DNA from: Patescibacteria group bacterium
Lineage (GTDB): Bacteria > Patescibacteriota > Patescibacteriia > UBA1558 > GWA2-36-10
Reading direction: 5' to 3'
DNA: 64,000 bases
NCBI GenBank assembly: GCA_018819405.1
Contig: JAHJQF010000001.1
Coordinates: 753,469-817,468, forward strand
In this document: piece after piece, positions 19,400 to 63,529 of the stretch
How positions within the stretch are numbered: position 1 is the stretch's first letter
How the letters are laid out: each line of letters starts with the position of its first letter
Program-made: the position numbers and the translations under genes
The notes under the pieces: model-generated
Told to the model about the DNA's origin: nothing
What the model saw: only the letters and a program-made list of their open reading frames with translations
Database searches by the model: none

Positions 19400-19404
19400 A
19401 AATT

Positions 19405-30780: not shown

Positions 30781-30802
30781 TCCACCAGAAGGGAAGTATA
30801 CA

Positions 30803-46046: not shown

Positions 46047-46075
46047 TTGACAAAATTACTAAAATATGATATAAT
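46047..46075 (+). promoter_or_regulatory. consensus sigma70 promoter (island 2)
   Basis: TTGACA(46047-52), 17 nt (aaattactaaaataTGa), TATAAT(46070-75). Confidence 0.65.
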
Positions 46076-46163
46076 ATTACATTCTGAGCTTAAGTTTTGC
46101 TCGGAACCACCGCTCTCCACTTTGGAGGGCACGCACACTACAACACATTCGAGGAGGAGCCTC

Positions 46164-47208: not shown

Positions 47209-48666
47209 TTATTTTAATCTTTTTATTATTCCCTGATTTGCGTCTACTTCTACTATATCACCATCCTTAAATACTTTTGTTGCAATTCTGGTGCCTATCA
47301 AACACGGCTTTTTCATTTCCCTGGCAACTATTGCCGCATGGGAAGTAATACCTCCTTGCTCTGTCACAAATGCTGCTGCTCGCTTCATAGCTGGTAATAG
47401 ATTAGGGTCAGTATAAATAGCCACCAAAATATCGCCCTCCTCTACTTTGTCTAAATCCTTGGGACCGTTGACTATTTTAACCACACCAGTCACTTTACCA
47501 AGAAAAGCCGCCTGCCCTTTGAGCTGATCACTGTCCTCTATCTTATCCTTAATAAAATCTTTCCTCAATATATCTAATTCATTTTTTGATAAAATAGATA
47601 ATTTGTCTGCCTCATAATACTGACAAAAAAAATCTTTTCTTTTTAAAATATTTTTATAATCAGACAAATTGCCAAATACTAAATCTTTGATTTCATCTTG
47701 GCCGGAATAATAAAAAGCGAGTTTTGGTATATCTAACTTTTGACTAAACTCCTCAAATAGTAGGTTTATCACATAACAAAAATAATATCTAATTCCTACA
47801 CGATAATTTTTAACATATGAAAAATCCCTAGCTACCGCAAAAGCAAACTTTTGATTTTTTTCCAATACTAATTGTTTTTCCAATTTTTCACGATCTTTTT
47901 TTATATTTAATAAATAGTCTTCATGTTCTTCTAGACTTTTGTCTGGATCTCCTTTGGATAATATTTCCTGAGCCCTTAAGACAAAATCATCTTCAGTCCA
48001 AGATGGCCCAATATATCCAAAGTTTATCCAATTATATTTTTTGGTATGTTTTTTAAATTCTATAGAATTTTTGAGATCTTCTATTTTTGAATATTTAACT
48101 AATAAAGCTATAAACTCTCTTTCTTCTTGCCAAAATATATTGGATTTTTCACTGGTAATCAGTTGATTTAATGTTTTAGAAATTTGATCCTGGCTGATTT
48201 TGTCTTTGAGAATATCTTCCAATCTGCTAGTCAAAAATCCGTGTTCTACATCACTTATTACTGCTACAAAACCTAATTCATTTAATTTTAAATAATTATA
48301 TACAACCTCATCAAACCAAATATTAAAATCGCTGGCTTTTAATTTACTAAAATCTTGTTTTATGATTTTGTCCAAACTACTTATTATTTTCTTACCATAA
48401 AACAAATGCTCATTTACCAAAGCATCTAAATCAAAAGTATTATTGAAGATATTATCAACTAATTTTGAACCCAGATTATTCCAGGCTGGCAAATCAGTAG
48501 CCCAATTGCCATCGCCATTTTCATAATAAACCAATTGATTTTTATAAGCTTTGCCCAGATATTTTTTTAAAATTTCAGAGACTGTAAAATCACGGCAAAT
48601 TGTCCACCAGACAAAATAATTAACTTCCTTTTCTTCAATTATTAATTTGAACTTGTTGTTTTTCAT
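47209..48666 (-). CDS. PEP-utilizing-enzyme mobile (phosphohistidine swivel) domain protein, paralog 1
   Basis: C-terminal ~90 aa: GKVTGVVKIV...GDILVAIYTDPNLLPAMKRAAAFVTEQGGITSHAAIVAREMKKPCLIGT...GDIVEVDANQGIIKRL (PF00391-like, His in TSHAAI). The N-terminal ~390 aa carries no recognised motif. Confidence 0.7.
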   Translation of the reverse strand: MKNNKFKLIIEEKEVNYFVWWTICRDFTVSEILKKYLGKAYKNQLVYYENGDGNWATDLPAWNNLGSKLVDNIFNNTFDLDALVNEHLFYGKKIISSLDKIIKQDFSKLKASDFNIWFDEVVYNYLKLNELGFVAVISDVEHGFLTSRLEDILKDKISQDQISKTLNQLITSEKSNIFWQEEREFIALLVKYSKIEDLKNSIEFKKHTKKYNWINFGYIGPSWTEDDFVLRAQEILSKGDPDKSLEEHEDYLLNIKKDREKLEKQLVLEKNQKFAFAVARDFSYVKNYRVGIRYYFCYVINLLFEEFSQKLDIPKLAFYYSGQDEIKDLVFGNLSDYKNILKRKDFFCQYYEADKLSILSKNELDILRKDFIKDKIEDSDQLKGQAAFLGKVTGVVKIVNGPKDLDKVEEGDILVAIYTDPNLLPAMKRAAAFVTEQGGITSHAAIVAREMKKPCLIGTRIATKVFKDGDIVEVDANQGIIKRLK

Positions 48667-50153
48667 AGTTTTTTAATTATTCCTCGGTCAGCATCCACCT
48701 CTATCATATCTCCGTCTTGTAAAATTTTAGTAGCAATTTTTGTCCCTACTACACAGGGAATATCCAATTCTCGAGAAACTATAGCTGCATGGCATGTAAT
48801 CCCCCCTTCATTAGTGACAATAGCAGTCGCTTTTTTAATTGCTGGCATTAAATCAGGGGTTGTAGCCTGTGATACCAGCACATCACCTTTATTCATTTTT
48901 TTCATATCTTCCATTTTATCTACAATTTTTACCCGCCCTTTTACCCGCCCTGCTTTAGCTGGCATACCTTTTATTTCTGATATATTTTTGTTTATTTTTT
49001 TATCTTCAGGAAACTCAAACAACTTCATTTTTTTGATTGCTGCCTGATCATAGTATTCCTCACGCTCGCCACTTCTATGAACAATCAAAAAATAATTAGC
49101 TATTCTTTTTTGAGCCAATGTTTTCAAATCTTTTTTATTTTCTATTTCATCTGAATAAAGATTCATAACTTCCAGAGTGGACAAGTTTAATCTTTCTCCT
49201 AGCTCTTTATAAATAAAACTAATATTATAACAAGCTTCCTGAAATTCATATTCTCTAATCCACTTATAATAACCAATATCAGCCACTAACTTAAAAATTC
49301 TTTCCTCCTGTTTATTAAGACCCAGTTCCGATACAGCCTTGACAAAATTATTCTGACTATATTCATCATAATTTTTTAGGTAGTCCAATCTTTTGAATAT
49401 ATTTGTGTTTAATTTCTCCAAAATCATATTGATATAATGATCCAAGTCCCAGCCCAACTCTCCAGCAAAATTGTAAGATAAATATCCGTGTTCTTGATGT
49501 ATTTGATTCAATTGATTTTCAAAATTATCCAAAATATCCTTAGCTTCTGCAAAATTTTTATCCTTGGCGATTTTGGCTAGCTCCAAAATTTTTATTTCCA
49601 AGTCTTGTGTCTTCATTTTATCCAATGGGCTAGTCAAATACATAAGATAATCAGCGAACCCGGACGGATTATCCTTGGTTTTATCTTTTAATATATTTTC
49701 CATTTGTTGATAAATAGGTGCCTGGTCAGTATAACCCATTAAAGTCGGCACCGTGCCGTATTTATAAAAATCAACAAACTTATTATCAAATTGGCGGCAA
49801 TAATCTACCAAATCACTTATATTTTTATCAGCCAAATTATTTTGCAAAATATTTTTTGTTAGAATATTCAATTCTTTGGCTTTTTTGTAAGCTGTTTTAA
49901 AAATATTATACAAGAAATCCGAATCTTTTTGCGAGCGCCTAAATAAATCGTCCATAGTACTTATTATCTCTTTCATGGAATAAATATAAGCTGAACGACC
50001 ATTTTGAAAAAAACTTATAGATTTCGTCATTTGATTGTCAGGAAAAACCTCGGTAAAATCTCTGACTGTCCCCAAACCAACTACATACATAAGATTTGGA
50101 GTGTATGGCCTGTCTTTAAAAATATAAATATATTGTTCTCTGTTTTTAGTCAT
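48663..50153 (-). CDS. PEP-utilizing-enzyme mobile domain protein, paralog 2
   Basis: GRVKGRVKIV...[41 protein letters not shown]...GDMIEVDADRGIIKKL. ATGA start/stop overlap with paralog 1. Confidence 0.7.
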   Translation of the reverse strand: MTKNREQYIYIFKDRPYTPNLMYVVGLGTVRDFTEVFPDNQMTKSISFFQNGRSAYIYSMKEIISTMDDLFRRSQKDSDFLYNIFKTAYKKAKELNILTKNILQNNLADKNISDLVDYCRQFDNKFVDFYKYGTVPTLMGYTDQAPIYQQMENILKDKTKDNPSGFADYLMYLTSPLDKMKTQDLEIKILELAKIAKDKNFAEAKDILDNFENQLNQIHQEHGYLSYNFAGELGWDLDHYINMILEKLNTNIFKRLDYLKNYDEYSQNNFVKAVSELGLNKQEERIFKLVADIGYYKWIREYEFQEACYNISFIYKELGERLNLSTLEVMNLYSDEIENKKDLKTLAQKRIANYFLIVHRSGEREEYYDQAAIKKMKLFEFPEDKKINKNISEIKGMPAKAGRVKGRVKIVDKMEDMKKMNKGDVLVSQATTPDLMPAIKKATAIVTNEGGITCHAAIVSRELDIPCVVGTKIATKILQDGDMIEVDADRGIIKKL

Positions 50154-50751
50154 TGAGCAAACTGGTCAAATATTTTCTAAAATCCTTAAAATTTTTATAC
50201 AGATAAGTATGAATACCCAGCTTCTTGGCATTTGGCAGATTAAAATACTGATCATCTACAAAAAATACCTCGTCTGCTTTGACTTTGTATTTTTTCAAGA
50301 CATACTTAAAAGTCTTAGCAGATCCTTTTGATAATTTTAGATCATAAGTGTTTATCAAATCAAAATGTTTTTTGAGCTGATATTTATTTACGACATATTT
50401 GAACTGACCGGTTGTATTTTTAGAAAGAAGTAGTATTTTATATTCCTTATTTTGAAGTGATTTAGCAAAATTAAAAACTGACTTATTGATATGTTGAAAA
50501 GAAAGATGTTTAGATCTAAATATTTTCCAATCTTCTTTCATACCAATTTCTTTGGCGGCTAGCTCAAAGGATTGTCTTTCAGTTATCTTGCCGAGGGATG
50601 CCGGAGTAAAATATTTGTGATAGACAATATCATAGCAAATATCAAAATCTATTTTGTATTTGCGACTAATCCACCGACAAGTTTCCTTGTAGCTGCCGAC
50701 ACTCATCACACCATATAGATCTATAATAATTAGCTTTATTTTTGGTTTCAT
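50146..50751 (-). CDS. HAD-superfamily hydrolase
   Basis: Motif I IIDLYGV (DxYG, haloacid-dehalogenase-like), motif II SKNTT, motif IV FFVDDQ. Confidence 0.55.
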   Translation of the reverse strand: MKPKIKLIIIDLYGVMSVGSYKETCRWISRKYKIDFDICYDIVYHKYFTPASLGKITERQSFELAAKEIGMKEDWKIFRSKHLSFQHINKSVFNFAKSLQNKEYKILLLSKNTTGQFKYVVNKYQLKKHFDLINTYDLKLSKGSAKTFKYVLKKYKVKADEVFFVDDQYFNLPNAKKLGIHTYLYKNFKDFRKYLTSLLND

Positions 50752-52178
50752 ATTTTTTTACAAAGTCCTGTTTTTATATCAATTTTTATTTTATCACCTG
50801 TCTTAAAAATTTTAGTTGCATTTTTTGTAGCCACTACACAAGGTATACCTAATTCACGAGAAACAATAGCAGCGTGAGAAGTAAGTCCTCCTTCATCTGT
50901 GACAATAGCTTTAGCTTTTCTCATAGCCACAATAAACTCCGGAGTAGTTATCGTAGTAATCAAAATTTCTCCTTGCTTCATTTTATTTATTTCTTTAATA
51001 CCAAACAATATACGAGCACGACTACTTACATTACCTCGGCCTCTGCTAATTACCAAACCTTTGACTGAATCAACTCCCTTAATAGTCTGTTCTGCTAAAA
51101 AAGGCTTGATAATTTTTAATGCCTGTTTCCCGTCTATGTGCTTATAACCGTTATTTTCTTTATAAATTGATAACAAGGCCATTTTCCTTTTTTTTGTATC
51201 AACAACCTTCCCTTTCTTAAGAAGAGTAATTAAATCAGGATAACTATAATAATATAAATCTTGGAGAGAAATTTTTAATCTCTTAGATATTTCTTTTATA
51301 AATTCATTTATAAAATAATCTGAAATAAGTATATACTGCTTGCGATAATCTTGCCACCACAAACAATATGCCACACCATTTGCTATTGATACAATTTCTG
51401 AATTTATTTTGAATTTTTTTATAACATTTTTTTTGTCGGATTTTATTTTTTTACTATAATTTTCAATTTCTTTTAATTTTTTACGAGCGCCGGCTTGTGA
51501 AATCTTACTTAATCTATTCTTAAAATATTTTTTATCTAATACTCTTACTTCAAAATAACTATTGGCCAGCCAGTAATATTTTTTGGCATGTCTTACCAGA
51601 GCAATTTCAATATCCTTTTTATTTTTAAGTAGTTTTATTTTCAATAGACTAAACTCTTCTTTTTGATAAAAAGACGATTTTTCTGGAGCTGGCAAGCTTT
51701 CTAAAATTTCCAAATAATTTTTTGGATATCTTTCCAAAACTTTATTTTTTAATAATCTTTCCCCTCCCCAGTTGCCAAGTTCCGGTAGCCATGATTTTAG
51801 CCAAAACTCTTCATAAAAATCATACCAGCTAATAAAAAATTTTATGAATTCCTTGTTAGAATAATTATCAAATCCTCTGTTTATTATTTTTTCATAATAA
51901 TTAAATTTTTTTAAAATTAAAATCCAATCTTTATATAATTTTTTTAACCTTTTTTTATTTAAGACATATTTTATAAATAATTTTTCTCCATTATCTCTCA
52001 ATTTTTTATCTTCGGCCAAAAATAAAAGTCGTTTATCTTTGAAATACAACAAAAAATCAGGCCAGCCTACACCAGCTATTTTTGGATATTTCTGAACAGC
52101 ATACATTGTGAGATCTGCATAAATAATTCTAGCATCTGCCGGTCCCCACCTAAATAATTCTTTTTTATAATCTACCAT
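50748..52178 (-). CDS. PEP-utilizing-enzyme mobile domain protein, paralog 3
   Basis: GLVISRGRGNV...[41 protein letters not shown]...GDKIKIDIKTGLCKKI. Confidence 0.7.
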   Translation of the reverse strand: MVDYKKELFRWGPADARIIYADLTMYAVQKYPKIAGVGWPDFLLYFKDKRLLFLAEDKKLRDNGEKLFIKYVLNKKRLKKLYKDWILILKKFNYYEKIINRGFDNYSNKEFIKFFISWYDFYEEFWLKSWLPELGNWGGERLLKNKVLERYPKNYLEILESLPAPEKSSFYQKEEFSLLKIKLLKNKKDIEIALVRHAKKYYWLANSYFEVRVLDKKYFKNRLSKISQAGARKKLKEIENYSKKIKSDKKNVIKKFKINSEIVSIANGVAYCLWWQDYRKQYILISDYFINEFIKEISKRLKISLQDLYYYSYPDLITLLKKGKVVDTKKRKMALLSIYKENNGYKHIDGKQALKIIKPFLAEQTIKGVDSVKGLVISRGRGNVSSRARILFGIKEINKMKQGEILITTITTPEFIVAMRKAKAIVTDEGGLTSHAAIVSRELGIPCVVATKNATKIFKTGDKIKIDIKTGLCKKI

Positions 52179-53010
52179 TTTTCTTTTGATTTATCATAGC
52201 TACCAACCACTTTATATGAAATTCAAAATCTTTTTCCGTGCGGCTATTATCTTCATAGTAATGAGATAAACCTAACTTAGTACCAATTAGCAACTTACCA
52301 CCAGAAGCTAAAATCATCCTAAACATCTGATTACCGACCATACCATTTGGTGGAATCAATAAATTATAACCTTCTTCTATAGCTATATTTGAATCAATAG
52401 ACCAATTTTTGACAATTAATCTTTCTTTGTTTAGTTTTTTTACTATCCACTGGGCGTCAGAATAAGTTTTGTTTAACTTGGCAACAATACCACTTTTTAT
52501 ATTTCTTTTACGCTTATAAGTATCATGCCTTACTCCGCTGAGCACACAAATTCTAGGTTTAATATTAAACCCTATCATCATATTGGCCGTAATAAGTGCT
52601 TTAGAAAAACGATCTTCTTTTGTCCAAGCCTCTGGATTACTGACAAAAGCAATAAAAATTTTATTTTTATTGGGCAGCTGCATTAACACAGGATTAGCTA
52701 ATGTATTTTCTCCTGTTAATTTTCTGTAAACTTCGTAAGTTTTAAAATCATCAATTGTTCCTCTTACCATTCCTTCTACCTCTCCATTTACCAACATTTC
52801 CACCAATTTCTTTTCGGGATTATTACTAATATTTAATTTGAATCCTTTTATACTGCTTATTTTCTTTGGACCAACAATATTAATATCCGCATATTTATGA
52901 GATTTTCTTAAACTGGTTAAAATGAGCTCATCAGGTTTATCAAGGCCAAAAGCTATTTTAGGATGTCGTAATTTTAATAATTTTTCTATTTTTTGGTCAA
53001 ATTTATCCAT
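52165..53010 (-). CDS. phosphate acyltransferase family protein (Pta/Ptb-like)
   Basis: LVEMLVNGEVEGMVRGT (compare Pta GEADGMVSG) and a C-terminal LLIPPNGMVGNQMFRMILASGGKLLIGTKLGL resembling the PTA_PTB C-terminus. Confidence 0.5.
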   Translation of the reverse strand: MDKFDQKIEKLLKLRHPKIAFGLDKPDELILTSLRKSHKYADINIVGPKKISSIKGFKLNISNNPEKKLVEMLVNGEVEGMVRGTIDDFKTYEVYRKLTGENTLANPVLMQLPNKNKIFIAFVSNPEAWTKEDRFSKALITANMMIGFNIKPRICVLSGVRHDTYKRKRNIKSGIVAKLNKTYSDAQWIVKKLNKERLIVKNWSIDSNIAIEEGYNLLIPPNGMVGNQMFRMILASGGKLLIGTKLGLSHYYEDNSRTEKDFEFHIKWLVAMINQKKNGRL

Positions 53011-53013
53011 ATA

Positions 53014-53526
53014 TTATCTTTTAAACAAATTTTTAAAAAATTCAGTCCTGTCCACATTGGCTACATGAGTAAACCATTCATCTTGAAATTTGTAAGCCAA
53101 GATAAACAACCAAATCCAGACAATATTTTTCTTGTACCACTGGGCTGTCTTTTCCCGCCCTTTGAACAACTCGGCTGTAGCGTAAATTAAAAATAATGGT
53201 TCTACCAGATTAGGAAAATAAAACAGCATCATTTCATCGCGAGTAAAAAAGAAAGAAAATTGTCCGATTGTCCTAATCAAAAATGTGACAATGACTTCTT
53301 TTTTTATCACTCTCTTCCAGCCCCAAATAACTATAAAAATATAAGTAGTATAATCAGCTATTTTATCTATTAATTGATATTTTTTATCTTCCAGTCCCAG
53401 AGGAATAAGTATATCTCCATCTACTGAGTCCAAAATAAAATTGGCCCAGCCGGCAAAAAATGGAAATTTCAAAATCAAAACCGGGAAGGCAAATTTTAAT
53501 AATATTATTAAGACTATAAAAAACAT
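53014..53526 (-). CDS. CDP-alcohol phosphatidyltransferase-like membrane protein
   Basis: LDSVDGDILIPLGLEDKKYQLIDKIAD approximates the D-G-x2-A-R...G-x3-D-x3-D motif. Several TM helices. Weak. Confidence 0.35.
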   Translation of the reverse strand: MFFIVLIILLKFAFPVLILKFPFFAGWANFILDSVDGDILIPLGLEDKKYQLIDKIADYTTYIFIVIWGWKRVIKKEVIVTFLIRTIGQFSFFFTRDEMMLFYFPNLVEPLFLIYATAELFKGREKTAQWYKKNIVWIWLFILAYKFQDEWFTHVANVDRTEFFKNLFKR

Positions 53527-53548
53527 ATACTATATATTTATTAAAAAT

Positions 53549-53833
53549 TTAAACCGCCCGAACTTCTTTTACCTCGGGCATAGCCCCTCTGATTTCTGCT
53601 TCTATCAAATGCTTTAGAGTCACATCAGCTAAAATACAGTGAGCACAAGCGCCTTGTAGTACAATCTCTACAATCCCCTTTTTCTTGTCATAACTCACTA
53701 GTTCCAAATTGCCATTGTCACGCATCAAAGCCGGACGAATACGATCTAGTATTTTATTTAATTTGTCCTCATCACTGAGTTTTTTTGACGCGGCCTTAGG
53801 CTTTGCCTTGGCTTTTGTTTTTGCTTTTGGCAT
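53549..53833 (-). CDS. NifU-like (Nfu) Fe-S cluster scaffold domain protein
   Basis: ILDRIRPALMRDNGNLELVSY...GACAHCILADVTLKHLIE (CxxC). Lys-rich N-terminal tail. Confidence 0.7.
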   Translation of the reverse strand: MPKAKTKAKAKPKAASKKLSDEDKLNKILDRIRPALMRDNGNLELVSYDKKKGIVEIVLQGACAHCILADVTLKHLIEAEIRGAMPEVKEVRAV

Positions 53834-53837
53834 ATAT

Positions 53838-53912
53838 GTAAATTTACCCTGTTAAATATTTTGCCCCGCAAAATACTGCTTTGCAGTATTTAACAGGGTG
53901 AATTAATTTTTA
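53838..53912. repeat. palindromic intergenic element (ACCCTGTTAAATAtt..gc ... gcAGTATTTAACAGGGT); a partial copy at 63521-63553
   Basis: ~17-bp inverted repeat around a ccccgcaaaatactgc core. A 25/26-nt match (TTTAACrGGGTGAATTAtTTTTATA) occurs at the 3' end of the partial rmlB. Confidence 0.5.
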
Positions 53913-54389
53913 TAAAAATTTTTAAACTGACTTATTATTTCTTCTTCACCGTTATTATTATATAAAGTATAGCAGTCTATCTTTGGTTCTTCAAATATTT
54001 TTTCTAGCTCATCAGCATATTTTTTGGATACAAAATGCTGTCTACCAACAAGACGTTTGGCCATTATATCTTTATCAGCCTTGAGTAAAATAAATTTTGC
54101 TTCTGGAAAATTGTCCAACATCATTTGACGAAACTTTTCTTTTATAAAAGCTTGACTAACAATTATATTTTTATATTTTGGTTTTAATTCATTTATTTTA
54201 GCTATAACAATGTTATAAAAATCTTCTCTGTTCTTATCAGTGGCTATATCATTTTTTTTTAATTTTGTCTATCAAATACTGAGGAATATCGCTATCAGCA
54301 TCATAATGATAAAAATCAAAATTTTTGGCTATCACATCGCCCACAAAATTTTTGCCTGCGCCAGGTTGTCCAAATAGAAATATGATCAT
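53903..54389 (-). pseudogene. gluconokinase/GntK-family P-loop kinase, interrupted by a +1 frameshift in an A9 homopolymer (coding strand) at 54252-54260
   Basis: N-terminus MIIFLFGQPGAGKNFVGDVIAKNF (Walker A) runs from 54389 to the A-run and stops after KKK. Removing one A restores a 162-aa ORF joined to the track ORF 53903..54124 (...ILLKADKDIMAKRLVGRQHFVSKKYADELEKIFEEP, GntK-like). Confidence 0.6.
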
Positions 54390-54424
54390 AATTTCTTTAT
54401 TATACCATTATTGGCATCAACTTC
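54386..54424 (-). pseudogene. 13-codon remnant of a PEP-utilizer paralog C-terminus (...[13 protein letters not shown]), stop overlapping the kinase ATG (ATGA)
   Basis: 45 nt nearly identical to the 3' end of 55854..57194 (…[13 protein letters not shown]). Upstream of this the sequence becomes repeat element B. Confidence 0.55.
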
Positions 54425-54486
54425 TGCCGATTTTGCCCAAGAGCGCAGCGATTGGCTGCAAAATCGAGCATCCCGCGAAGCGGGAT
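54421..54486. repeat. repeated terminator-like element, copy B
   Basis: CTTCTGCCGATTTTGCCCAAGAGCGCAGCGATTGGCTGCAAAATCGAGCATCCCGCGAAGCGGGAT. Homologous to 46899-46973. Contains the ATCCCGC-gaa-GCGGGAT hairpin. Confidence 0.6.
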
Positions 54487-54495
54487 ATAGCTATT

Positions 54496-55857
54496 CTAAT
54501 GCTTACTTAATTTTTTAACTATGCCGCGGCTAGCGTCTACCTCAACCATATCGCCATCTTTTAAAACTTTAGTAGCATAATTAGTACCAATTATACAAGG
54601 CTTTCCCAATTCCCTTGAAACAATAGCCGCGTGACAAGTAATGCCGCCTTCATCGGTAATTATAGCAGCAGCTTTTTTCATTAGAGGTACATATTCCGGC
54701 CTAGTCATACCTGTCACTAGTATCTCGCCTTTTTTAAAACTCTCTGTCTCTAAAAATACATTGGTAATAATTTTTACCTTGCCCTTGGCGTATCCAAGAG
54801 AACCCGACTGTCCTATTATTTTATTATCAAACTGATAATCTGTTCCAATATTATCATAAAATCTATATTCAAATTTTTTTGCTCCATCAGGGTATAACAA
54901 AACTGAAAAACCATTTTTCCTTTTTGCTATTTCTGTAATATTACTTCTTAAATATTTTGTCCCTTTTTCTATTTCCTCAAACAAACAAAAATTTATCAAA
55001 TCTTTGGACAGATTAGCCGTCTCAAAAATATGTTCGGCATATCGACCCATGATTGACAGAAGCATGCCAAAATAATCTTTTCTCTGATCACGCTTGTCTA
55101 TAGCCCATTGAAAAAAATCAGTCATTCTTCTCTCCTTTTCAGATAAATCATTTTTCCAACTAGTACTTTTGCCGTTTACTTTTTTATGTATTAATAAATT
55201 TTTATACTTTTCTTGTAGTTGTTTTTTAGTAAACTCAAAACTTAATATCCGGTCATAGGCTGCCTCCAAATACTGACATTTTTCAGTTATTTGATCCCAA
55301 TTATAATCTGCCTCCACTAATCTCTTTAATTTTTTTGATCCGCGATCATAAAAAGATTCCGTATTTAAAATTGAAGCCTTGTTCCAGAAAGAATCGTCTA
55401 GCTTACCAAAACGATCAAATACATCTTTATCTAAACCAATAGTAAAAAACGTCAAAGCACTCAAACTCCAAGCATTATCAACTATGCTATTTAAGTCTTC
55501 TCCTAAATCATTATTATTTTTTATATATTTATAAGTTAATTTACTATAAATATTTTCTATCTTTTGAGAAAACTTTTTAAAATTATCCTCCATTTTAGAC
55601 AAATGTTTTTTGTCTTCCCAAACCGAATACATTGTTTCCAAACAAGCTGCTTTTGAGTGACCTAAAGAAATATACATTAGACCAATATCTCCTTTGACCG
55701 AAATTAATAAAGGAAAAGAATAATTATTTTTATAAAGAGATCTAAAATATTTACTCTGATTCCACCCCCGTGTTTGATATATCAAAGCTGAATTCAAAAT
55801 AGGAGGAGATATCTCTAAACCATCTTGAGCTTTTAAGTATAAATCAACAATACTCAT
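54496..55857 (-). CDS. PEP-utilizing-enzyme mobile domain protein, paralog 4
   Basis: [10 protein letters not shown]...[49 protein letters not shown]...[16 protein letters not shown]. Confidence 0.7.
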
Positions 55858-57194
55858 AATTTCTTTATTATACCATTATTGGCGTCCACCTCTACCATAT
55901 CACCATCTTTTAAAACTTTGGTAGCATAATTAGTACCAACCACACAGGGCACTTTTAGCTCACGACTGGTTATGGCGGCGTGAGAAAGCATACCACCTTC
56001 ATCAGTCACAATAGCCGCTGCCAGACGCATGGCTGGAGTATAACGCGGATCAGTCATTTGAGCGACCAATATATCCCCCTTTTCAATTTTTGAAATTTCT
56101 TTATAAGAATTAACAATCTTAACTTTACCCTTAACTACGCCCCTCGTAGCTGATATGCCTTGAAGCTGATCAATATAATTAATTTGTTTTTTGACAATTT
56201 GTTTTATCTTTTCTATCTGAACTTTATCTGTGACAATATTTAATGACCCATCATAGTAATAAAGAAAGTTTTTCTCTCTTTTGGCCAAGTCAATTGCCTC
56301 AGGTAATTTAGCTTTGGTTAAAATGTCTTCAATTTCTTCATAGCTCAAATTCGCCACTGCTTTTAAACTAATATTTTCAAATTTATCCTTAAGATACTCA
56401 AAAAATCTACTAATAATAAACAAACTATGTTTCCAAGAATCCACACGATCATTTCTTAAAAATATATATTCATGAAATAATATGCATTTGGCTTTTATTT
56501 CTTCATCGTCTAGCTTGGAAATAAAATTATCAAACTCTTTTTTATGTCGAGAAAATTGAGCAAATATTTTTTCTACCTTATCTCTATCCAGCTCTTTGGA
56601 CATCTTCTCTAACTCCTCAATAGTATATATTCCCTCACCAATGTAATAGCTTTTTAACCAGCCGTACTTTTCCAAGGCCATTTGTGGCCCTTCCTCCAAA
56701 AGCATTTTTTCCATCAATTGATACTGAGTCGGTTTATCAGAGTTAATAATTTTTTCAAAATCTTCGGGGAACAACCTAATTAGCTCCGGCTCGGCATATT
56801 CTATCAAAGCAAAGGGTATAAGGATGTAATCAAAAAAATCATAAACTGAGGAAATGTAATTTTTAAATAATACAAAAAGTTCTTTATCCGATACCTTGCC
56901 TACTCCCTGAGATAATATTTTCGAACTCTCCAAAATTCTGTCCCTGGCCGGAATATAATCAGTCAAATGACTCTTGTAGTTTGATAATACTCTTTGGTAA
57001 GTTTTTTTTAAAACTTTTTTATATGAAGGCTCATCAAAATAATATGAACCCATCACACCATCCTCTTCTGGTATGACCACAAAAAATTTCATACCAGCAT
57101 CATAAATTGCTTTTAGATAATAAAATTCTCTGGCTATACCATAAGGACGGGTAGCCCATTTAAAAAATTTGTATTTGAAAAATTTATCTTCCAT
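55854..57194 (-). CDS. PEP-utilizing-enzyme mobile domain protein, paralog 5
   Basis: [11 protein letters not shown]...[49 protein letters not shown]...[20 protein letters not shown] overlap with paralog 4. Confidence 0.7.
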
Positions 57195-57912
57195 TTTTCC
57201 TTAATTTAGCAATAGTGTTGCCAGCTTCCAGTAAGGCATCAAAAGTACCCGTATCCAACCAATAATGATCATATTTTTTGACATCAAGTTGCCCCTCTTT
57301 GAGATATAGATTGTTGATATCGGTAATTTCCAATTCTCCTCTGGCTGATGGCTGGAGACTCTTGGCTTTGTCTACCACAGTATTATCATAAATATAAAGC
57401 CCAGTTACCGCAAAATTGCTCTTTGGCTTGGTTGGCTTTTCTTCTATAGAAATTGCTTTGCCACTAACATCAAACTCTACTACACCAAATCTATTGGGAT
57501 CAGGCACTTCTTTAGCAAAAACACGACCACCTGATTGAAAACTCCTGATAGCCTCATCAAGAAAATCACCGTCACCGACAAACAGGTTGTCACCAAGTAT
57601 CAAAGTAACGTTGTCGCTACCTACAAAATTTTCTCCTAGTAAAAAAGCCTGAGCAATGCCCTCTGGTTTATCTTGCACTTCATAAGTGATCTTGACGCCA
57701 AAATCTTTGCCACTAGCCAGCAACTTGGAAAATTTGTGAATATTGTCCGGATCAGAGATTATCAGTATATCTTTGATACCACCGTCAATGAGAGTCTCTA
57801 AAGGATAATAAATCATCGGCCTATCATAAATTGGCAAGAGTTGTTTTGATGTCACTTTAGTAAGTGGATGAAGTCTAGTGCCGGCTCCGCCAGCAAGTAT
57901 AATTCCTTTCAT
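57184..57912 (-). CDS. rmlA: glucose-1-phosphate thymidylyltransferase
   Basis: MKGIILAGGAGTRLHPLTKVTSKQLLPIYDRPMIYYPLETLIDGGIKDILIIS. Start placed at MKG (57912). The track's upstream extension to 57951 runs through the inverted-repeat element. Confidence 0.75.
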   Translation of the reverse strand: MKGIILAGGAGTRLHPLTKVTSKQLLPIYDRPMIYYPLETLIDGGIKDILIISDPDNIHKFSKLLASGKDFGVKITYEVQDKPEGIAQAFLLGENFVGSDNVTLILGDNLFVGDGDFLDEAIRSFQSGGRVFAKEVPDPNRFGVVEFDVSGKAISIEEKPTKPKSNFAVTGLYIYDNTVVDKAKSLQPSARGELEITDINNLYLKEGQLDVKKYDHYWLDTGTFDALLEAGNTIAKLRKNGR

Positions 57913-57927
57913 ATAGTTTATTGTTGC

Positions 57928-57995
57928 GTCATTGCGAGCGTAGCGAAGCAATCTACAAGCTTTTGGATTGCCACGCCCTTCGGGCTCGCAATGAC
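57928..57995. repeat. 12-bp inverted repeat GTCATTGCGAGC...(44 nt)...GCTCGCAATGAC between rmlD and rmlA
   Basis: Perfect 12-bp arms. Shares GTCAT...ATGAC termini with the TTGTCAT..ATGACAA family. Lies 16 nt upstream of the rmlA start. Confidence 0.55.
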
Positions 57996-58004
57996 ATTTT
58001 TAAT

Positions 58005-58838
58005 TTATTTTTTATTATCTGCGTATTTTTTTATAGTGTCCTCTACTGCTTCTTTGACTGGACGCATTTTGATACCCAGCTTTGGAAGATTAAGAGAAGT
58101 CATAATATTATTTGATCTTTTTTTGTCAGCCAAACCAAGCCTGACCAATTCTTCTTCCTTTATCCATTCATTTTTGTGATTAGGATCTATATATTTTTTA
58201 TACAGTGCCAGGATTTCTTTGTGTTTGATAGAGCCTGGATTGGTCACGTGGTATATGCCCTCTGCTTTTTTTTCTAAGAGCTGATAAAAGACATCTATCA
58301 TGTCTGGTACAACGGTCAAAGAATTTTCTACATCCACTATTTTTTCGTATTTTGATAATTTATCAATCAAATTGGCTGGATGAGGCCTGTCATCAAGTGG
58401 CATGCGGATACGGGCAATACCGACATTTGGCATTTTGGCCAAGACCAAATCAGCTGCATATTTACATCTAGTATAGACTGCCACTGGATTGGCATAATCA
58501 TCTTCTGTCCAGGCCTGACCATCAGGAGCCTGACCATAAAATATACAGCCAGTGCCCATATGAAGAAGATATACTCCTTTTTTCTGACAAGCCTCGGCAA
58601 TGATAAGTGGCAGTATGGTATTGCCCTGATAGGTTTCCAATTGGTGAGTTTCACACCAATCTACATTTGGTTTACCAACAATTCCGGCTGCATTTAAAAT
58701 TGCGTCGGGTTGGTGCTCGTCTATTAATTTTTCGACATCTTCCACAGTTTCAACAATCTTGTCAGTTATGACTGCGTCGTTCCAGCTCTGGGCACAACGA
58801 ATGCCTAAATATCCTTTGCCTATTATAAGTATTTTCAT
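58005..58838 (-). CDS. rmlD: dTDP-4-dehydrorhamnose reductase-like NAD(P)-dependent sugar reductase
   Basis: N-terminal Rossmann MKILIIGKGYLG. About 277 aa. Neighbouring rmlA. Confidence 0.55.
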   Translation of the reverse strand: MKILIIGKGYLGIRCAQSWNDAVITDKIVETVEDVEKLIDEHQPDAILNAAGIVGKPNVDWCETHQLETYQGNTILPLIIAEACQKKGVYLLHMGTGCIFYGQAPDGQAWTEDDYANPVAVYTRCKYAADLVLAKMPNVGIARIRMPLDDRPHPANLIDKLSKYEKIVDVENSLTVVPDMIDVFYQLLEKKAEGIYHVTNPGSIKHKEILALYKKYIDPNHKNEWIKEEELVRLGLADKKRSNNIMTSLNLPKLGIKMRPVKEAVEDTIKKYADNKK

Positions 58839-58843
58839 TTATT

Positions 58844-58915
58844 TTGTCATCCTGAACTTGTTTCAGGATCTAGCTAATAATTAATGGAGATGCTGAAATA
58901 AATTCAGCATGACAC
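58844..58915. repeat. hairpin repeat element copy 3, 6 nt upstream of the rmlD start
   Basis: TTGTCATCCTGAACTTGTTTCAGGATC...GCTGAAataaatTCAGCATGACAC. Confidence 0.6.
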
Positions 58916-58937
58916 TATTTTAACTTAATTTTTTATA

Positions 58938-58966
58938 TTGACATTTTTATCTAAATATGATATAAT
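58938..58966 (+). promoter_or_regulatory. consensus sigma70 promoter (island 3)
   Basis: TTGACA(58938-43), 17 nt (tttttatctaaataTGa), TATAAT(58961-66). Confidence 0.65.
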
Positions 58967-59020
58967 CATACAATATTCGTTCCGCCTTGACAACACCAAT
59001 CTTAGGGAGGTTTCCAAGAA

Positions 59021-59461
59021 ATGAAGATAATCAAGGTCTACTCTGTCGGCCAGTTCTGGCACGACATGTATCCCCTCTGCCCGACCGGTTACACCCTACA
59101 GGTTATCATCGACATCCGCGGTGCCATTGCTGATCTCCTCGAGGAGATTGGCCCGATCGACGGCACCGAGAAGGTCTGTCAGGATCACATCATGTCAGCT
59201 CCCGGCTACGCCGAATGGCTGGAGCGCACCAACGACTGGCTCTACACCAACTACCTGAAAACGTTCCTGAAAAATAAGCAGTTCGAATGCCTCAATATCA
59301 TCTTCGTGTGCACTGGGGGCTTCCAGCGCTCGGTCACGACGGCCATCAAAAGTGCTGAGTACTTGCGCATACACTGCGCCGGTAAGGCTGAGGTCGTGGT
59401 CAAGCACCTGACCATGGAGATGACCAGGGGGCTGGCCAAGGAGATAACCAACAAGGGCTGA
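59021..59461 (+). CDS. Cys-X5-Arg P-loop protein, putative cysteine-dependent (DSP/LMW-PTP-like) phosphatase, 146 aa, GC-rich foreign composition
   Basis: SD GGGAGG sits 10 nt before ATG. High GC3. IIFVCTGGFQRSVTTAIKSAEYL matches the (V/I)xFVCxGxxxRS(x)T...AYL signature of PTP-fold phosphatases. A candidate general-acid Asp lies about 26 residues upstream. Confidence 0.4.
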   Translation: MKIIKVYSVGQFWHDMYPLCPTGYTLQVIIDIRGAIADLLEEIGPIDGTEKVCQDHIMSAPGYAEWLERTNDWLYTNYLKTFLKNKQFECLNIIFVCTGGFQRSVTTAIKSAEYLRIHCAGKAEVVVKHLTMEMTRGLAKEITNKG

Positions 59462-59479
59462 CAAATCCTTCGACCCTTA

Positions 59480-59523
59480 CGAGGTCCGTTCGCGTTTATA
59501 CGCAACTGGCCTCGTATTTTTTT
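59480..59523 (+). terminator. rho-independent terminator (island 3)
   Basis: CGAGGTC-...-GGCCTCG stem with an inner GCG/CGC stem, followed by tattttttt. Confidence 0.55.
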
Positions 59524-59526
59524 AAA

Positions 59527-61056
59527 TTACAATTTTCTTACCATTCTCTTTTCAGCATCCACCTCAATTATGTCTCCATCTTTAAATACTTTGGTAGCAA
59601 ATTTTGTACCGACCACGCAAGGCGTAGATAATTCCCGAGCCACAATAGCCGCATGGCAAGTCAACCCGCCTTCGTCAGTGACAAAGGCGCTGGCTTTTTT
59701 CATAGCGGCTATAATATTTGGTGTAGTACTGACTGATACCAATATATCATTGTATTCCATCTTTGCCATATCAGCTGGATTATTGATTATCTTGACTGTG
59801 CCTTGGACTTTGCCAGGGCAAGCAGTTGTGCCTCTCAATTCTTTGATATTTTTTATTTCCTGTTCTTCTTCACGATGGATAGCTTTTTCAAATTCTTCTG
59901 CTTCTTGACCAATCAAGATAGACACTGTCTTATCCTGATTTGGTATTATAATGTGATATTTTTTAATACTATTTATAATTTTATTATCTGGTTCTTTACC
60001 ATCTACCAAACATTCTTTTATCATATCAAATGGCGTATTTCTAACCTGCTCGAGAGAAAGATGCAGACGCTTGCTTATTTCCGATTGCAATTTCTTAGCA
60101 TGATAATATGACTTGGCCTGATAATCTTTTCTCCGAGGCTTACCCCAGACAAATTTGCCGGCTAGATTCAACATATTTTTTTCACGTTCTGTCGGCTTAT
60201 ATTTCTTATAAAATTCTTGTTTCCTTTTTTCTAGATTTTTTCTTTTACTACCCAAATTTTTTAGTAGCTTCTCTGGGTGTTCCAACTTTATCAAATAATC
60301 ACGTATAAAACTCAAAAAATCCTCTTCGGTTGACTCTGGACCATTGTAAGCATAATAAACCCAGGCATGTTTATTAGTATGTTCTTCCAAATCTCTATAA
60401 AAATCTTTATGCAGTTCCTTTAGATCATCTAGACTTTTTGTCTCTATATCTTTACGCCAATTGTCATAATCCCAATACTTAACCATTATATTTAACAAAG
60501 CCTCTTCCTGATCCTGAGCAAATGAATTGGCTGGTGGTTCAGTAAATAAAGTATAGTAATCCTGATACTCTTTTTCGTTTACATTTTTTTTCAAATAATC
60601 ATTTAAAAAATTTTCTACATAAGTAAATTTTTGCCAATCAAGAACTGGTAAGGCTGTACCTACAGCATAAATTTTACCCTGATAATTATCAAATTTTTCT
60701 AAAAGCAATATCAATTCTTCCCCAGATAGTTTACTCAAATCAGGTTTATAAATATTATTTTCAGTCCAATTATTGAATTTCTCACCCATCTGATGAGATT
60801 GGTCAATTAAATTTTCAAAAAAATCTTTATCCTCCAGCGCCTTAGTTTTTAACTCCTCGTGAAGTTCCTGCCAAATCTTCATGTCAGCCAGGTATTCTAA
60901 ATCATTGTTTTTGGATATTATCCCCGCTACCAAAGTATTTTTTGTACCATTTACCTCTGGGTAATGAAAAAGGCCTTTGGTCCAAATATAATTTCTAAAA
61001 AAAGGAGAGTTGTAATCCCGGCCGACTATTTCCCAATTGTAATTTTTGTAACTCAT
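59527..61056 (-). CDS. PEP-utilizing-enzyme mobile domain protein, paralog 6
   Basis: PGKVQGTVKII...NDILVSVSTTPNIIAAMKKASAFVTDEGGLTCHAAIVARELSTPCVVGT...GDIIEVDAEKRMVRKL. Confidence 0.7.
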   Translation of the reverse strand: MSYKNYNWEIVGRDYNSPFFRNYIWTKGLFHYPEVNGTKNTLVAGIISKNNDLEYLADMKIWQELHEELKTKALEDKDFFENLIDQSHQMGEKFNNWTENNIYKPDLSKLSGEELILLLEKFDNYQGKIYAVGTALPVLDWQKFTYVENFLNDYLKKNVNEKEYQDYYTLFTEPPANSFAQDQEEALLNIMVKYWDYDNWRKDIETKSLDDLKELHKDFYRDLEEHTNKHAWVYYAYNGPESTEEDFLSFIRDYLIKLEHPEKLLKNLGSKRKNLEKRKQEFYKKYKPTEREKNMLNLAGKFVWGKPRRKDYQAKSYYHAKKLQSEISKRLHLSLEQVRNTPFDMIKECLVDGKEPDNKIINSIKKYHIIIPNQDKTVSILIGQEAEEFEKAIHREEEQEIKNIKELRGTTACPGKVQGTVKIINNPADMAKMEYNDILVSVSTTPNIIAAMKKASAFVTDEGGLTCHAAIVARELSTPCVVGTKFATKVFKDGDIIEVDAEKRMVRKL

Positions 61057-62057
61057 ATTTTCCTTATTATTCCCTTTTCAGCATCCACCTCTACCATATC
61101 ACCGTCTTTGAAAACTTTGGTAGCAAATTTTGTGCCAATCACACAAGGAATTTTAAGCTCTCTAGCTAATATTGCAGCGTGACAGACTATACCACCCTCA
61201 TCGGTGACAATGGCTGCAGCTTTCTTCATGGCCGATACAAAATCCGGCGTGGTCATAGGAGATAGCAAAATATCACCTTCATTAAAATCTACTATTTTAT
61301 TTTTCTTTTTCAAAATTTTTATTTTGCCTTTAGCATAACCTCTGAAAGCAACTTGACCTTTTACATATTGATTATCATCAAAATTTTCAAAAACAAATTG
61401 ATAATTTTTGTTTTGCAAGGCAAAGTCTTCCAAAGAGACAATTGAAGCAAATCTACCCATGTCTACCACAAAATTATGACTTCTTTTTTCCATTTCCTCT
61501 CTTGTCGGCATATTATCTACATCTTCTATGGACAAAGTATTGGCCAGTCCCTTGGATTGAGGATAGATAAATTCTATTGATCGGCGAACAAAATTGTCTA
61601 CTTTGTCAAAAAATACATCCTTATTACGTATCCTGTTGGCTATTTTCAATATTTTTTTATCATTTCTATCATCCATGGCTGTATAATAGAATATAACAAA
61701 ATACTTCATACCAGTAGTGGCCAAATTGATAAAATTTTTCAATAGCTCTACAGAATCGCTTTTGTCCTGAGACCAGATATTTTCCAGTTTACCAAGTAGC
61801 CCCTCATATTCATCCATTCTGGAAGCAAACCAATTTTTGTCGCTATTATTTTTTCTAAAGATCTCTTCTTTGTACCAATTGATGGCTTGTCTATTTTCCC
61901 AGACCTCCATCATGCCGTCGTTGATATAATAAATATTTTTTACTTTGTGCGGATTTTCATTATCATATAGACCAAAACTCAATGCCTTATCCCACATCTG
62001 TTCAATAATCAAAGGATAATCTCTGGTATATTCTTTTTCCAAAACTATTTTTTTCAT
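61053..62057 (-). CDS. PEP-utilizing-enzyme mobile domain protein, paralog 7 (short, 334 aa)
   Basis: RGYAKGKIKIL...[49 protein letters not shown]...[20 protein letters not shown] overlap with paralog 6. Confidence 0.7.
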   Translation of the reverse strand: MKKIVLEKEYTRDYPLIIEQMWDKALSFGLYDNENPHKVKNIYYINDGMMEVWENRQAINWYKEEIFRKNNSDKNWFASRMDEYEGLLGKLENIWSQDKSDSVELLKNFINLATTGMKYFVIFYYTAMDDRNDKKILKIANRIRNKDVFFDKVDNFVRRSIEFIYPQSKGLANTLSIEDVDNMPTREEMEKRSHNFVVDMGRFASIVSLEDFALQNKNYQFVFENFDDNQYVKGQVAFRGYAKGKIKILKKKNKIVDFNEGDILLSPMTTPDFVSAMKKAAAIVTDEGGIVCHAAILARELKIPCVIGTKFATKVFKDGDMVEVDAEKGIIRKI

Positions 62058-63511
62058 ATTTTTCTCACTACTCCCTTATCAGCATCTACCTCTACCATAT
62101 CCCCGTCTTTAAAAAATTGCATAGCTTTTAAACATCCTACTATACAAGGAATCTTTAATTCTCTAGAAATAATAGCAGCATGAGATGTAATACCACCTTC
62201 ATCCGCTATAATAGCTGCAGCTTTTTTAGCTACAACCATCATATTTGGCTGAGTCATGCTAGTTAAAAGTATTTCATCTTTTTTAAAGTTTTTAATACTC
62301 TCTTGAAGCATGTCTAGATTACCGGCTATAACTTTTCTTATCCTCCCGCGAGCAAATCCATGCATAGCAACCTGTCCTTTTATCAGACTATTAGTATTTT
62401 TTATTTTCTTGATTCTTTGATTAAAAATTTTTCTTGATTCTTTCGATCCAATTATTTCTAATTTTTCGTTAGAATAAATATTAAGTGCAAAAGATTTTTT
62501 ACGATCATTAACAATATCTTTTATATTACTAATTTTTTGTTTATTTAATAATTTTTCAGTTTCTAGTGGAGTCATAAATCCCAACAAATCTTCCAGTGGT
62601 ATATTTATTTCATCAGCTATTTTTAGCCACATTTTTCTAGCTAAATAATAAGATCCTGACCAGTAAGCTTTAATATTCATTCTTTCAACTGCTTGATTTT
62701 GAAGAAATATTGCTAAATATTTTGCTTCATTACTATCTTTATTAAATTTAATAAAAATCTTTTTCTGTTGATTTTTTAAATCATTTTTTAGTTTTTTCAA
62801 CCTATTTAATTCTTTCTTAAAAATATTTTTTTCTTCTTTTGCTCTAGTTTTTAAGAACTTCAAAATTTTATTATCATCGAATTGACCAAAAACAAGCCAC
62901 GGGTATTTTGAAATATGTTTTAAATAATTTAAATCATTCTCTTTTTTAGAAAGTAATCTTAGCCAGTCTATATTTTCTTTTTGTATATCGTCTAAAGATA
63001 CAGCCGTTGTTAAAATTCCAAAAATATCTAACCATTTATCCTTATAATACTTCTTAGTTATCTCCTTTAATCTCTGTTCTGCTGCGTAAGTAAATTCCAT
63101 GCGTGTACTACCAAAATAAGCAATAGAGTCTATAGAGTATTCAATAAATTTTTTATGATCTATAATAATATTTGAATTTTTTCTTTTTGAATAATCTATT
63201 TTTTCTATTTTTCTAATCCACTTCCACCAGTTGATAGATTCTTTTTTATATTTAATTTTATATTTTTTATAATAATGGGGATTTAAATATTTTTCTCCTT
63301 CTTTTTTAAACTTATCTAACTGACTTTCCTGCATATAAGCAGTGATAATTTTGCCATCAAAATAACAAAAAATTTTACCAAAAGAGTATATATCTCCTCT
63401 ATACAAAAGAGCTTTAGAGGTAGCCCAATAGTTAGACATTATTGGAATACTACTCCACATAAAAACCCAATTATCTTTCTTACTTTTTAATATATATACA
63501 TAATGATTCAT
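62054..63511 (-). CDS. PEP-utilizing-enzyme mobile domain protein, paralog 8
   Basis: HGFARGRIRKV...DEILLTSMTQPNMMVVAKKAAAIIADEGGITSHAAIISRELKIPCIVGC...[20 protein letters not shown] overlap with paralog 7. Confidence 0.7.
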   Translation of the reverse strand: MNHYVYILKSKKDNWVFMWSSIPIMSNYWATSKALLYRGDIYSFGKIFCYFDGKIITAYMQESQLDKFKKEGEKYLNPHYYKKYKIKYKKESINWWKWIRKIEKIDYSKRKNSNIIIDHKKFIEYSIDSIAYFGSTRMEFTYAAEQRLKEITKKYYKDKWLDIFGILTTAVSLDDIQKENIDWLRLLSKKENDLNYLKHISKYPWLVFGQFDDNKILKFLKTRAKEEKNIFKKELNRLKKLKNDLKNQQKKIFIKFNKDSNEAKYLAIFLQNQAVERMNIKAYWSGSYYLARKMWLKIADEINIPLEDLLGFMTPLETEKLLNKQKISNIKDIVNDRKKSFALNIYSNEKLEIIGSKESRKIFNQRIKKIKNTNSLIKGQVAMHGFARGRIRKVIAGNLDMLQESIKNFKKDEILLTSMTQPNMMVVAKKAAAIIADEGGITSHAAIISRELKIPCIVGCLKAMQFFKDGDMVEVDADKGVVRKI

Positions 63512-63529
63512 ATTATGATTTAAATTTAT

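Follow-up and report, generated by a model that had tools for sequence, protein, structure and literature searches.

The window analyzed here is a 64-kb stretch of a 1.04-Mb contig from a Patescibacteria group bacterium. It holds an array of eight minus-strand genes, p1 to p8 (locus tags KKH39_04190-04215), whose products join a divergent N-terminal domain to a phosphohistidine swivel domain at the C terminus. Open reading frame (ORF) calling placed the eight genes at exactly the coordinates reported in an earlier first-pass annotation of this DNA (Table 1). The four ATGA overlaps listed there as translational couplings, at 48663, 55854, 61053, and 62054, are real, and a fifth was found at 50748, where the stop codon of p3 overlaps the start of an HAD-family phosphatase gene. 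Further short overlaps occur at 50146-50153 (HAD/p2), 52165-52178 (a gene for a 281-amino acid (aa) protein/p3), and 57184-57194 (RmlA/p5). A copy of the source contig in ENA (L072; L numbers designate loci) is 100% identical over 12,948 bp, which correspond to window positions 51053-64000. On this copy, the 8 kb upstream of p8 hold no further paralog; the next gene on that side encodes an epimerase and is itself preceded by glycosyltransferase genes. Since an epimerase gene, rather than a paralog, lies upstream of p8, the array has exactly eight members at this locus. The NCBI records truncate p6 (start at residue 90; 420 aa vs 509) and p5 (start at residue 35; 412 aa vs 446), and full-length orthologs support the longer ORFs in both cases. 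The p5 ortholog P0081 shares 64% identity, and p7 orthologs (54-56% identity) adjoin p6 orthologs. Rfam and tRNA scans of the window gave no matches.

The domain content of the eight proteins was examined by Pfam and NCBIfam model scans. PF00391 matched all eight proteins over the whole 72-position model, with E-values of 2e-23 to 8e-27 and scores of 82-93 bits (gathering score, 23.1 bits). The G-G-x-x-[SC]-H-A-A-I loop with the catalytic histidine is invariant in the eight proteins; G463, G464, and H468 (p6 numbering) are also invariant in 114 family sequences, and six of the eight members carry the threonine typical of phosphoenolpyruvate (PEP) synthase in this motif. The C-terminal domain is thus a phosphohistidine swivel, as the first-pass annotation had proposed. 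PF01326 (the PPDK_N ATP-grasp domain) and PF02896 were detected in none of the eight, so that, in line with the same annotation, there is no ATP-grasp domain in cis. On the Pfam search, accordingly, the N-terminal domains are not ordinary PPDK_N domains, and the C-terminal similarity to PF00391 is significant throughout.

The NCBIfam equivalog scores for PEP synthase, pyruvate phosphate dikinase (PPDK), PtsI, and rifampin phosphotransferase (RPH) were all far under the cut-offs. For the PEP synthase and PPDK models, the swivel alone matched, at 97-135 bits against cut-offs of 598-843. TIGR01417 (enzyme I) matched 50-110 swivel residues at 36-45 bits (cut-off, 341.7). The match to the RPH-like PRK06241 models extended 150-260 residues upstream of the swivel. 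The PRK08296 models, which we take to be PpsA-like, matched only the last ~105-125 residues of the array proteins, that is, the swivel part. Identity as enzyme I of the phosphotransferase system (PTS) was rejected, given that the swivel part alone matches and the score is far under the cut-off. Identity as PEP synthase or PPDK was also rejected, in view of the missing PF02896 domain and the low equivalog scores.

The N-terminal regions are related as well. The first-pass annotation held that the eight proteins share only the C-terminal ~90 aa, but BLASTP alignments span 461 aa between p1 and p6 (E 2e-54), 479 aa between p2 and p6, and 426 aa between p3 and p5. Because the swivel drives the BLASTP scores, the N-terminal domains were then compared alone. 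Profile-profile comparison linked the p5-type and p6-type N-terminal domains with 99.8% probability (E 7e-29, 309 columns) and the p4-type and p5-type domains with 97.4% probability (E 1.2e-11), and hhalign linked the p8 N-terminal domain to the p6-ortholog profile (95%, E 3e-8, 262 columns). The single-sequence p4, p5, and p7 N-terminal domains did not match the p6-type profile significantly in hhalign, and the p4 and p5 links are significant only with subfamily profiles built from related loci. The E-values of these purpose-built profiles refer to small pooled databases. Mean pairwise identity among the eight proteins is 18.7% in the N-terminal region and 51.7% in the swivel. Judged by these comparisons, the N-terminal domains form a single family of very high divergence, to which the link of p7 is weak. 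The family is large, with 4,290 clusters at 50% identity (E <= 1e-3). Its homologs are proteins of ~510 aa from Patescibacteria, and the only names they bear in annotations are 'PEP-utilizing enzyme' or 'phosphohistidine swiveling domain-containing protein'.

p6 was modeled with AlphaFold2 from a 114-sequence alignment, and the model reached a pLDDT of 94.5 and a pTM of 0.91. The N-terminal domain in this model is all-helical and matches no nucleotide-binding fold. When the model was searched with Foldseek, the top six matches were all RPH-Lm, with E-values of 2.6e-14 to 1.4e-11 and TMq up to 0.59. From these matches, p6 appears to be an RPH without its ATP-grasp domain, in which a domain of the rifampin (RIF)-binding type is followed by the swivel; on the model, the p6 N-terminal domain is homologous to the rifampin-binding domain of RPH. 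The most conserved N-terminal motif of the p6 orthologs, VW-x-KPRRKDYQ, aligns with the R666-E667-x-x-K670 block of RPH in a hidden Markov model (HMM) alignment, although the register is uncertain at such divergence. This block is required for the second phosphotransfer in RPH (PMC4844700). In the same alignment, and with the same uncertainty of register, a basic residue falls on R666 in seven of the eight proteins and a lysine on K670 in five.

An ATP-binding partner is encoded elsewhere on the contig that carries the array (>1 Mb). KKH39_02590 (P0293; annotated 'hypothetical protein') is a stand-alone 313-aa PF01326 protein located about 320 locus tags from the array. It matches over its full length to PEP synthase residues 5-337 and to RPH residues 2-313. 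The identical protein is also present on a 50-kb contig, where its gene lies directly downstream of a gene for a 606-aa family member, the ninth member. None of the eight array genes has an ATP-grasp neighbor, and the ratio of family genes to the located ATP-grasp gene is at least 9:1.

The arrangement of such genes in relatives was surveyed in 66 distinct loci, the majority taken at one genome per species, in which ATP-grasp and family genes were identified by profile scan. The surveyed genomes did not include the source genome, and the best match among them was 59% identical. Many of the loci from L009 to L059 are titled DPANN archaea, Gammaproteobacteria, or Methanosarcinales. Some of these taxonomic labels are doubtful, since L034 ('Woesearchaeota') encodes at 17294-19054 a bacterial-type aspartyl-tRNA synthetase with a GAD domain. 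Two or more family genes were present in 49 of the 66 loci and six or more in 15, with a maximum of 11. A stand-alone ATP-grasp gene occurred once in 20 loci and twice in none, and an ATP-grasp domain was adjacent or fused in 28 of the 66. The ATP-grasp gene is the commonest non-family neighbor of the arrays and lies directly upstream of a p6-type gene in at least six loci. In the arrays of L001 and L002 (six and seven genes), the last family member has ~625 aa, and the gene after it (312 aa) has PF01326 as its only Pfam domain.

Fused proteins were also found. Those of 800-838 aa have the full RPH order of ATP-grasp, N-terminal domain, and swivel. Longer ones combine several swivels with one ATP-grasp domain: a single 4201-aa ORF in L040 (8489-21094) carries eight PF00391 domains and one PF01326 domain, ORFs of ~1615 aa in L035 (9020-13873) and L034 (9095-13942) carry three and one each, and P0121 (2309 aa) carries four and one. 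Over 22 loci, identity to the source genome was 61% for the ATP-grasp domain, 66% for the swivel, and 39% for the p6-type N-terminal domain. The parallel conservation of ATP-grasp and swivel fits a shared docking pair.

We consider it likely that the products of the array are the acceptor subunits of a small-molecule dikinase of the RPH type that is split into two components, with KKH39_02590 as the ATP-binding half. Among the readings considered, RPH-type dikinases with different substrates, as suggested at first pass, have the best support. By analogy with RPH and HpeHI, the ATP-grasp subunit would bind ATP and pass its beta-phosphate to the swivel histidine of a module, with release of AMP and Pi. 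The swivel would then swing back to its own helical domain, where a hydroxyl group of the bound substrate would receive the phosphate. Established directly are the domain composition, fold, homology, location of the partner gene, the pattern in relatives of an array with one ATP-grasp gene, and the multi-module fusions; the phosphotransfer, the sharing of one hub, and the substrates we infer. Helical domains that are ~19% identical beside swivels that are ~52% identical point to one hub and many substrate modules. Sharing of the hub is further suggested because no locus has more than one ATP-grasp gene, because the fusions hold three to eight modules per ATP-grasp domain, and because ATP-grasp and swivel show parallel conservation and the substrate domains diverge. 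The pattern suggests a single ATP-grasp hub that phosphorylates many modules, whose substrates differ from one module to the next.

Several observations weigh against this interpretation. No ATP-grasp gene was found by tblastn and hmmsearch in the 64-kb window or, on the upstream contig, within 8 kb upstream, and none lies within 10 kb of the array in the close relatives L069 and L074. KKH39_02590 might serve its 606-aa neighbor alone, since the only ATP-grasp gene located adjoins that member. The modules could also work without a hub, because HpeH alone transfers phosphate between substrates without ATP. At the glutamate of the catalytic Arg-Glu pair of RPH, the family alignment shows no conservation. 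The N-terminal profile had no significant match in the PDB by sequence alone, and the link to RPH therefore needed the structure model. Finally, p7 is weakly linked to the other N-terminal domains (E 9e-5 against the p5-type profile over 108 columns and 0.047 against the p6-type profile). The two alignments fall on the same stretch, the N-terminal ~110 residues, and the AlphaFold2 model of p7, which drew on 10 aligned sequences, was poor (pLDDT 61.8).

The closest functional parallels to a split dikinase are HpeHI, CreHI, and the phenylphosphate synthase PpsAB, in which an ATP-grasp subunit (HpeI/PpsB) and an RPH-like substrate/swivel subunit (HpeH/PpsA) act in trans without forming a stable complex, and in which mutation of the swivel histidine abolishes activity (PMC12167813). 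As in these systems, the present genome has separate genes for the ATP-grasp and for the substrate domain plus swivel, and the pair formed elsewhere on the contig by the 606-aa member and the ATP-grasp resembles the HpeHI-type arrangement. The known systems, however, are adjacent 1:1 gene pairs, whereas here eight (plus one) acceptor genes accompany a located ATP-grasp gene ~320 locus tags away. They also act on phenolic compounds and come from Actinobacteria and Proteobacteria, and HpeH, CreH, and PpsA are ~45% identical to one another, compared with ~19% for the array N-terminal domains. The array proteins fall outside the PpsA/HpeH clade as judged by the PRK08296 model, which matches the swivel only.

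RPH-Lm (PDB 5hv1, 5fbs-5fbu), of the RPH dikinase superfamily (Stogios et al. 2016), shares the order of a central helical substrate domain and a C-terminal swivel. It differs in that the array proteins have no ATP-grasp domain in the same chain; the domain is in trans here and in cis in the fused relatives. Identity to RPH is 15-17%, the glutamate of the Arg-Glu pair is not conserved, and there is no link to rifamycins. In sequence, the nearest match to the swivel and its G-G-x-T-[SC]-H-A-A-I motif is PEP synthase (8a8e, E 8e-46), and the stand-alone KKH39_02590 likewise corresponds to the ATP-grasp part of PpsA. Unlike PEP synthase and PPDK, the array proteins have no TIM-barrel for binding PEP or pyruvate (PF02896), and their swivel is C-terminal, not central. 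With PTS enzyme I they match in the swivel only, and they have neither the HPr-binding subdomain nor the PEP-binding domain.

The main competitor of the split dikinase is an orphan phosphoryl-exchange enzyme free of ATP-grasp, in which a phosphorylated metabolite would donate its phosphate to the swivel histidine, which would hand it on to another substrate (X-P + Y -> X + Y-P), a chemistry that would suit a scavenging symbiont. HpeH alone moved phosphate from 4-phosphoacetophenone to acetovanillone without ATP (PMC12167813). Besides this precedent, the lack of an ATP-grasp gene within at least 25 kb of the array in this genome and within 10 kb of the arrays of L069 and L074, as well as the HAD and histidine phosphatases that travel with the arrays, would agree with exchange. 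We nevertheless regard it as improbable, because ATP-grasp is adjacent or fused in 28 of the 66 related loci, the multi-module fusions always hold one ATP-grasp domain, an intact ATP-grasp is kept in the source genome, and swivel and ATP-grasp are conserved in parallel.

The proteins could instead be regulators or sensors, whose helical domain senses a ligand and whose partners read the phosphorylation state of the histidine. The 606-626-aa members that stand beside ATP-grasp genes have an N-terminal extension of ~90 aa with weak similarity to helix-turn-helix (HTH) domains of the ArsR/MarR type (E ~1e-3, sub-threshold), and TrmB-type and other winged HTH regulators recur near the arrays. The eight window proteins lack this extension and the HTH matches do not reach the threshold, the nearest solved and characterized relatives are enzymes, and eight to eleven sensors seem excessive for a 1-Mb genome; a sensory role is thus quite unlikely, and more so than exchange. 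The first-pass annotation had envisaged either a cryptic nucleotide-binding domain or an external phosphodonor. The second of these stands, with KKH39_02590 as the probable donor in the genome. Self-contained kinases with a cryptic nucleotide site in the N-terminal domain would explain why no ATP-grasp is found in cis or nearby, but we judge them very unlikely and rejected this option on the helical, RIF-binding-like fold of p6, which matches no nucleotide-binding fold, and on the in-trans ATP-grasp of this genome and its relatives; neither a P-loop nor an ATP-grasp family was detected in the array proteins. That the genes are decaying PEP synthase or PPDK fragments or annotation artefacts, as the database names 'PEP-utilizing enzyme' and 'pyruvate, water dikinase' and the truncated NCBI starts of p5 and p6 might suggest, is effectively refuted by the intact ORFs, the conserved full-length orthologs, the thousands of family clusters, the p6 dN/dS of 0.078, and an N-terminal fold unrelated to the PEP synthase domains.

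Any substrate class proposed for the split dikinase is a matter of speculation. One possibility is sugars or envelope and nucleotide-sugar precursors, since the array is embedded among RmlA, RmlD-like, glycosyltransferase, and epimerase genes, and this context points weakly in their direction. Other scavenged metabolites are about equally possible. Host-derived toxins or antibiotics, as for RPH, seem somewhat less likely, and the same holds for a class outside these three.

Patescibacteria have genomes of about 1 Mb and lack most biosynthesis. The nine paralogs and the ATP-binding partner take up some 13.8 kb, or about 1.3% of the 1-Mb genome. If one ATP-grasp serves many modules, this would be modular phosphorylation of many small molecules at minimal coding cost. 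We put forward only tentatively, as a proposal with slightly less than even chances, that hub-and-spoke phosphorylation with one hub, at least nine swappable modules, and up to eight modules per polypeptide is peculiar to ultra-small symbionts (Patescibacteria, possibly DPANN). If true, such a toolkit could replace many conventional kinases that trap or modify host-derived metabolites or envelope sugars. A literature search found no description of the family in Patescibacteria, and papers beyond the searched literature may exist. Since the family goes by the names 'PEP-utilizing enzyme' or 'pyruvate, water dikinase', metabolic reconstructions can arrive at a gluconeogenic PEP synthase where none exists. 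Direct tests of the system are feasible, as its partner gene is known and p6 has a high-confidence model.

The history of the array was examined by comparison with other genomes. Every N-terminal domain from p1 to p8 has its best relative in another genome and not within the array. The best relatives share 34.7% identity for p1 (L066/L067), 36.8% over 372 aa for p3 (L047), and 32% for p7 (L029), and matches within the array are at or below 26% identity or absent. Since the closer relatives lie in other genomes, the paralogs represent ancient subfamilies. A scaffold of epimerase, p6, RmlD-like, RmlA, NifU, HAD, a 73-aa gene, and MraY is common to three related genomes, and its proteins are 79-92% identical between the window and L069. 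The ratio of nonsynonymous to synonymous substitution rates (dN/dS) was computed for p6 and the backbone genes against L069. For p6 it is 0.078, with dS of ~1.6 near saturation, and by this measure p6 is under purifying selection.

The paralogs occupy slots in this scaffold. In the window, p8-p7 stand before p6, p5-p4 after RmlA, p3 before HAD, and p2-p1 after HAD. Of the four paralogs in L069, those that occupy corresponding slots share only 28-38% identity with their counterparts in the window. In L074, p7'-p6' are present, a MatE transporter gene fills the position of p5-p4, the P-loop kinase is intact, and a paralog follows HAD. These differences look like gain, loss, and replacement of cassettes on a conserved backbone rather than a recent local burst. 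The 'expansion plus decay' proposed at first pass is to be revised toward ancient subfamilies with cassette turnover. Fast turnover of cassettes would mark an adaptive interface with the host or environment.

A ninth paralog had been reported to survive as 13 terminal codons at 54386-54424. The relic is real. Its last 30 nucleotides (nt) match the p5/p4 junction (55854-55883) exactly, and coding-level similarity extends over another 12 nt. It is a copy of the p5 3' end, joined through ATGA to the P-loop kinase gene, and may mark the insertion of the p4 cassette instead of the decay of a ninth gene. The exact 30-nt direct repeat, GCCAATAATGGTATAATAAAGAAATTATGA, lies at 54395-54424 and 55854-55883 and flanks p4 together with its terminator-like hairpin. 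The repeat may be the footprint of a p4 cassette insertion, a substrate for deletion, or the trace of the loss of a former paralog.

Table 1. Coordinates of the array genes, the relic, and the neighboring genes in the 64-kb window.
Feature	Coordinates	Strand	Description
p8	62054..63511	-	485 aa; divergent RPH-type substrate domain + swivel; first gene of the array; PF00391 E 2.3e-23
p7	61053..62057	-	334 aa; short type, N-terminal domain ~228 aa + swivel; ATGA-coupled to p8 and p6; PF00391 E 3.7e-26
p6	59527..61056	-	509 aa; conserved core type; RIF-binding-like helical domain 1-~404 (predicted) + swivel ~405-509
p5	55854..57194	-	446 aa; module; 11-nt overlap with RmlA-like gene, ATGA with p4; PF00391 E 1e-26
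p4	54496..55857	-	453 aa; module; terminator-like hairpin 54469-54487 after the gene; PF00391 E 8.3e-27
p3	50748..52178	-	476 aa; module; ATGA-coupled to HAD gene; PF00391 E 2.9e-26
p2	48663..50153	-	496 aa; module; PF00391 E 1.5e-25
p1	47209..48666	-	485 aa; last module of the array; PF00391 E 3.2e-26
Relic	54386..54427	-	13-codon relic of a paralog 3' end, read from the sequence; ATGA-coupled to P-loop kinase gene
P-loop kinase (AAA_18/SKI-like)	53903..54389	-	inside the array; frameshift in A9 run near 54250
Mmp4/MtxX-like gene	52165..53010	-	281 aa; 14-nt overlap with p3 start; TIGR03270 E 1.1e-19, below cut-off
HAD-family phosphatase	50146..50751	-	201 aa; between p3 and p2; PF13419 E 4.5e-11; 54% identical to L002 HAD
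RmlD-like reductase/epimerase	58005-58838	-	PF04321 E 2e-21
RmlA-like nucleotidyltransferase	57184-57951	-	PF00483 E 1.4e-66
His-phosphatase-superfamily gene	46047..46835	+	downstream of p1; 61% GC; PF00300 E 8.5e-05

Other genes are interspersed with the array (Table 1). The order of the RmlD-like and RmlA genes is the same in L069 and L074. Promoter-like sites were predicted at 58822-58993 and a terminator-like hairpin after p4, and RmlD-like, RmlA, p5, and p4 appear to be co-transcribed. The P-loop kinase gene is split in the window. When its two frames were joined, AAA_18 (8e-07) and SKI (1e-05) were matched in Pfam, and L074 has an intact 161-aa ortholog; the split could reflect a pseudogene, a homopolymer sequencing error, or slippage. 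The 281-aa protein matches PDB 9nzy (MTH_231, 'uncharacterized methyltransferase') with an E-value of 1.3e-07. Mmp4/MtxX, a methanogenesis marker, is an archaeal-type family, found here in a Patescibacteria genome. The adjacent 170-aa gene (53014-53526) encodes a protein that is hydrophobic by eye and has no family match.

HAD phosphatase genes are the second commonest neighbors of the arrays (14 of 66 loci, including the window), and genes of the His-phosphatase superfamily recur beside arrays elsewhere. The neighbors in other genomes include PfkB, S-adenosylmethionine (SAM)-cycle, cytidylyltransferase, HD, and type IV secretion genes and do not point to a single pathway. Type IV secretion or conjugation-like genes stand beside arrays in several relatives; genes for PrgI, a TraC-like protein, and a TrwB/TraG-type coupling protein adjoin the arrays in L001 (20830-21545), L002 (20229-21533), and L027 (5763-7634).

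Three high-GC genes on the plus strand (46047-46835, 59021-59461, and 30695-31288) stand out amid genes of 30-35% GC that lie mostly on the minus strand. Two of them were measured at 61% and 55% GC, and the third lies in a 2-kb window in which GC rises to 44%. Two have Pfam matches, to His_Phos_1 and to the RapZ C-terminal domain. These genes may have been acquired horizontally from a high-GC organism. In L069, genes of 66% and 61% GC are found at the syntenic place (19391-20077 and 20336-20926).

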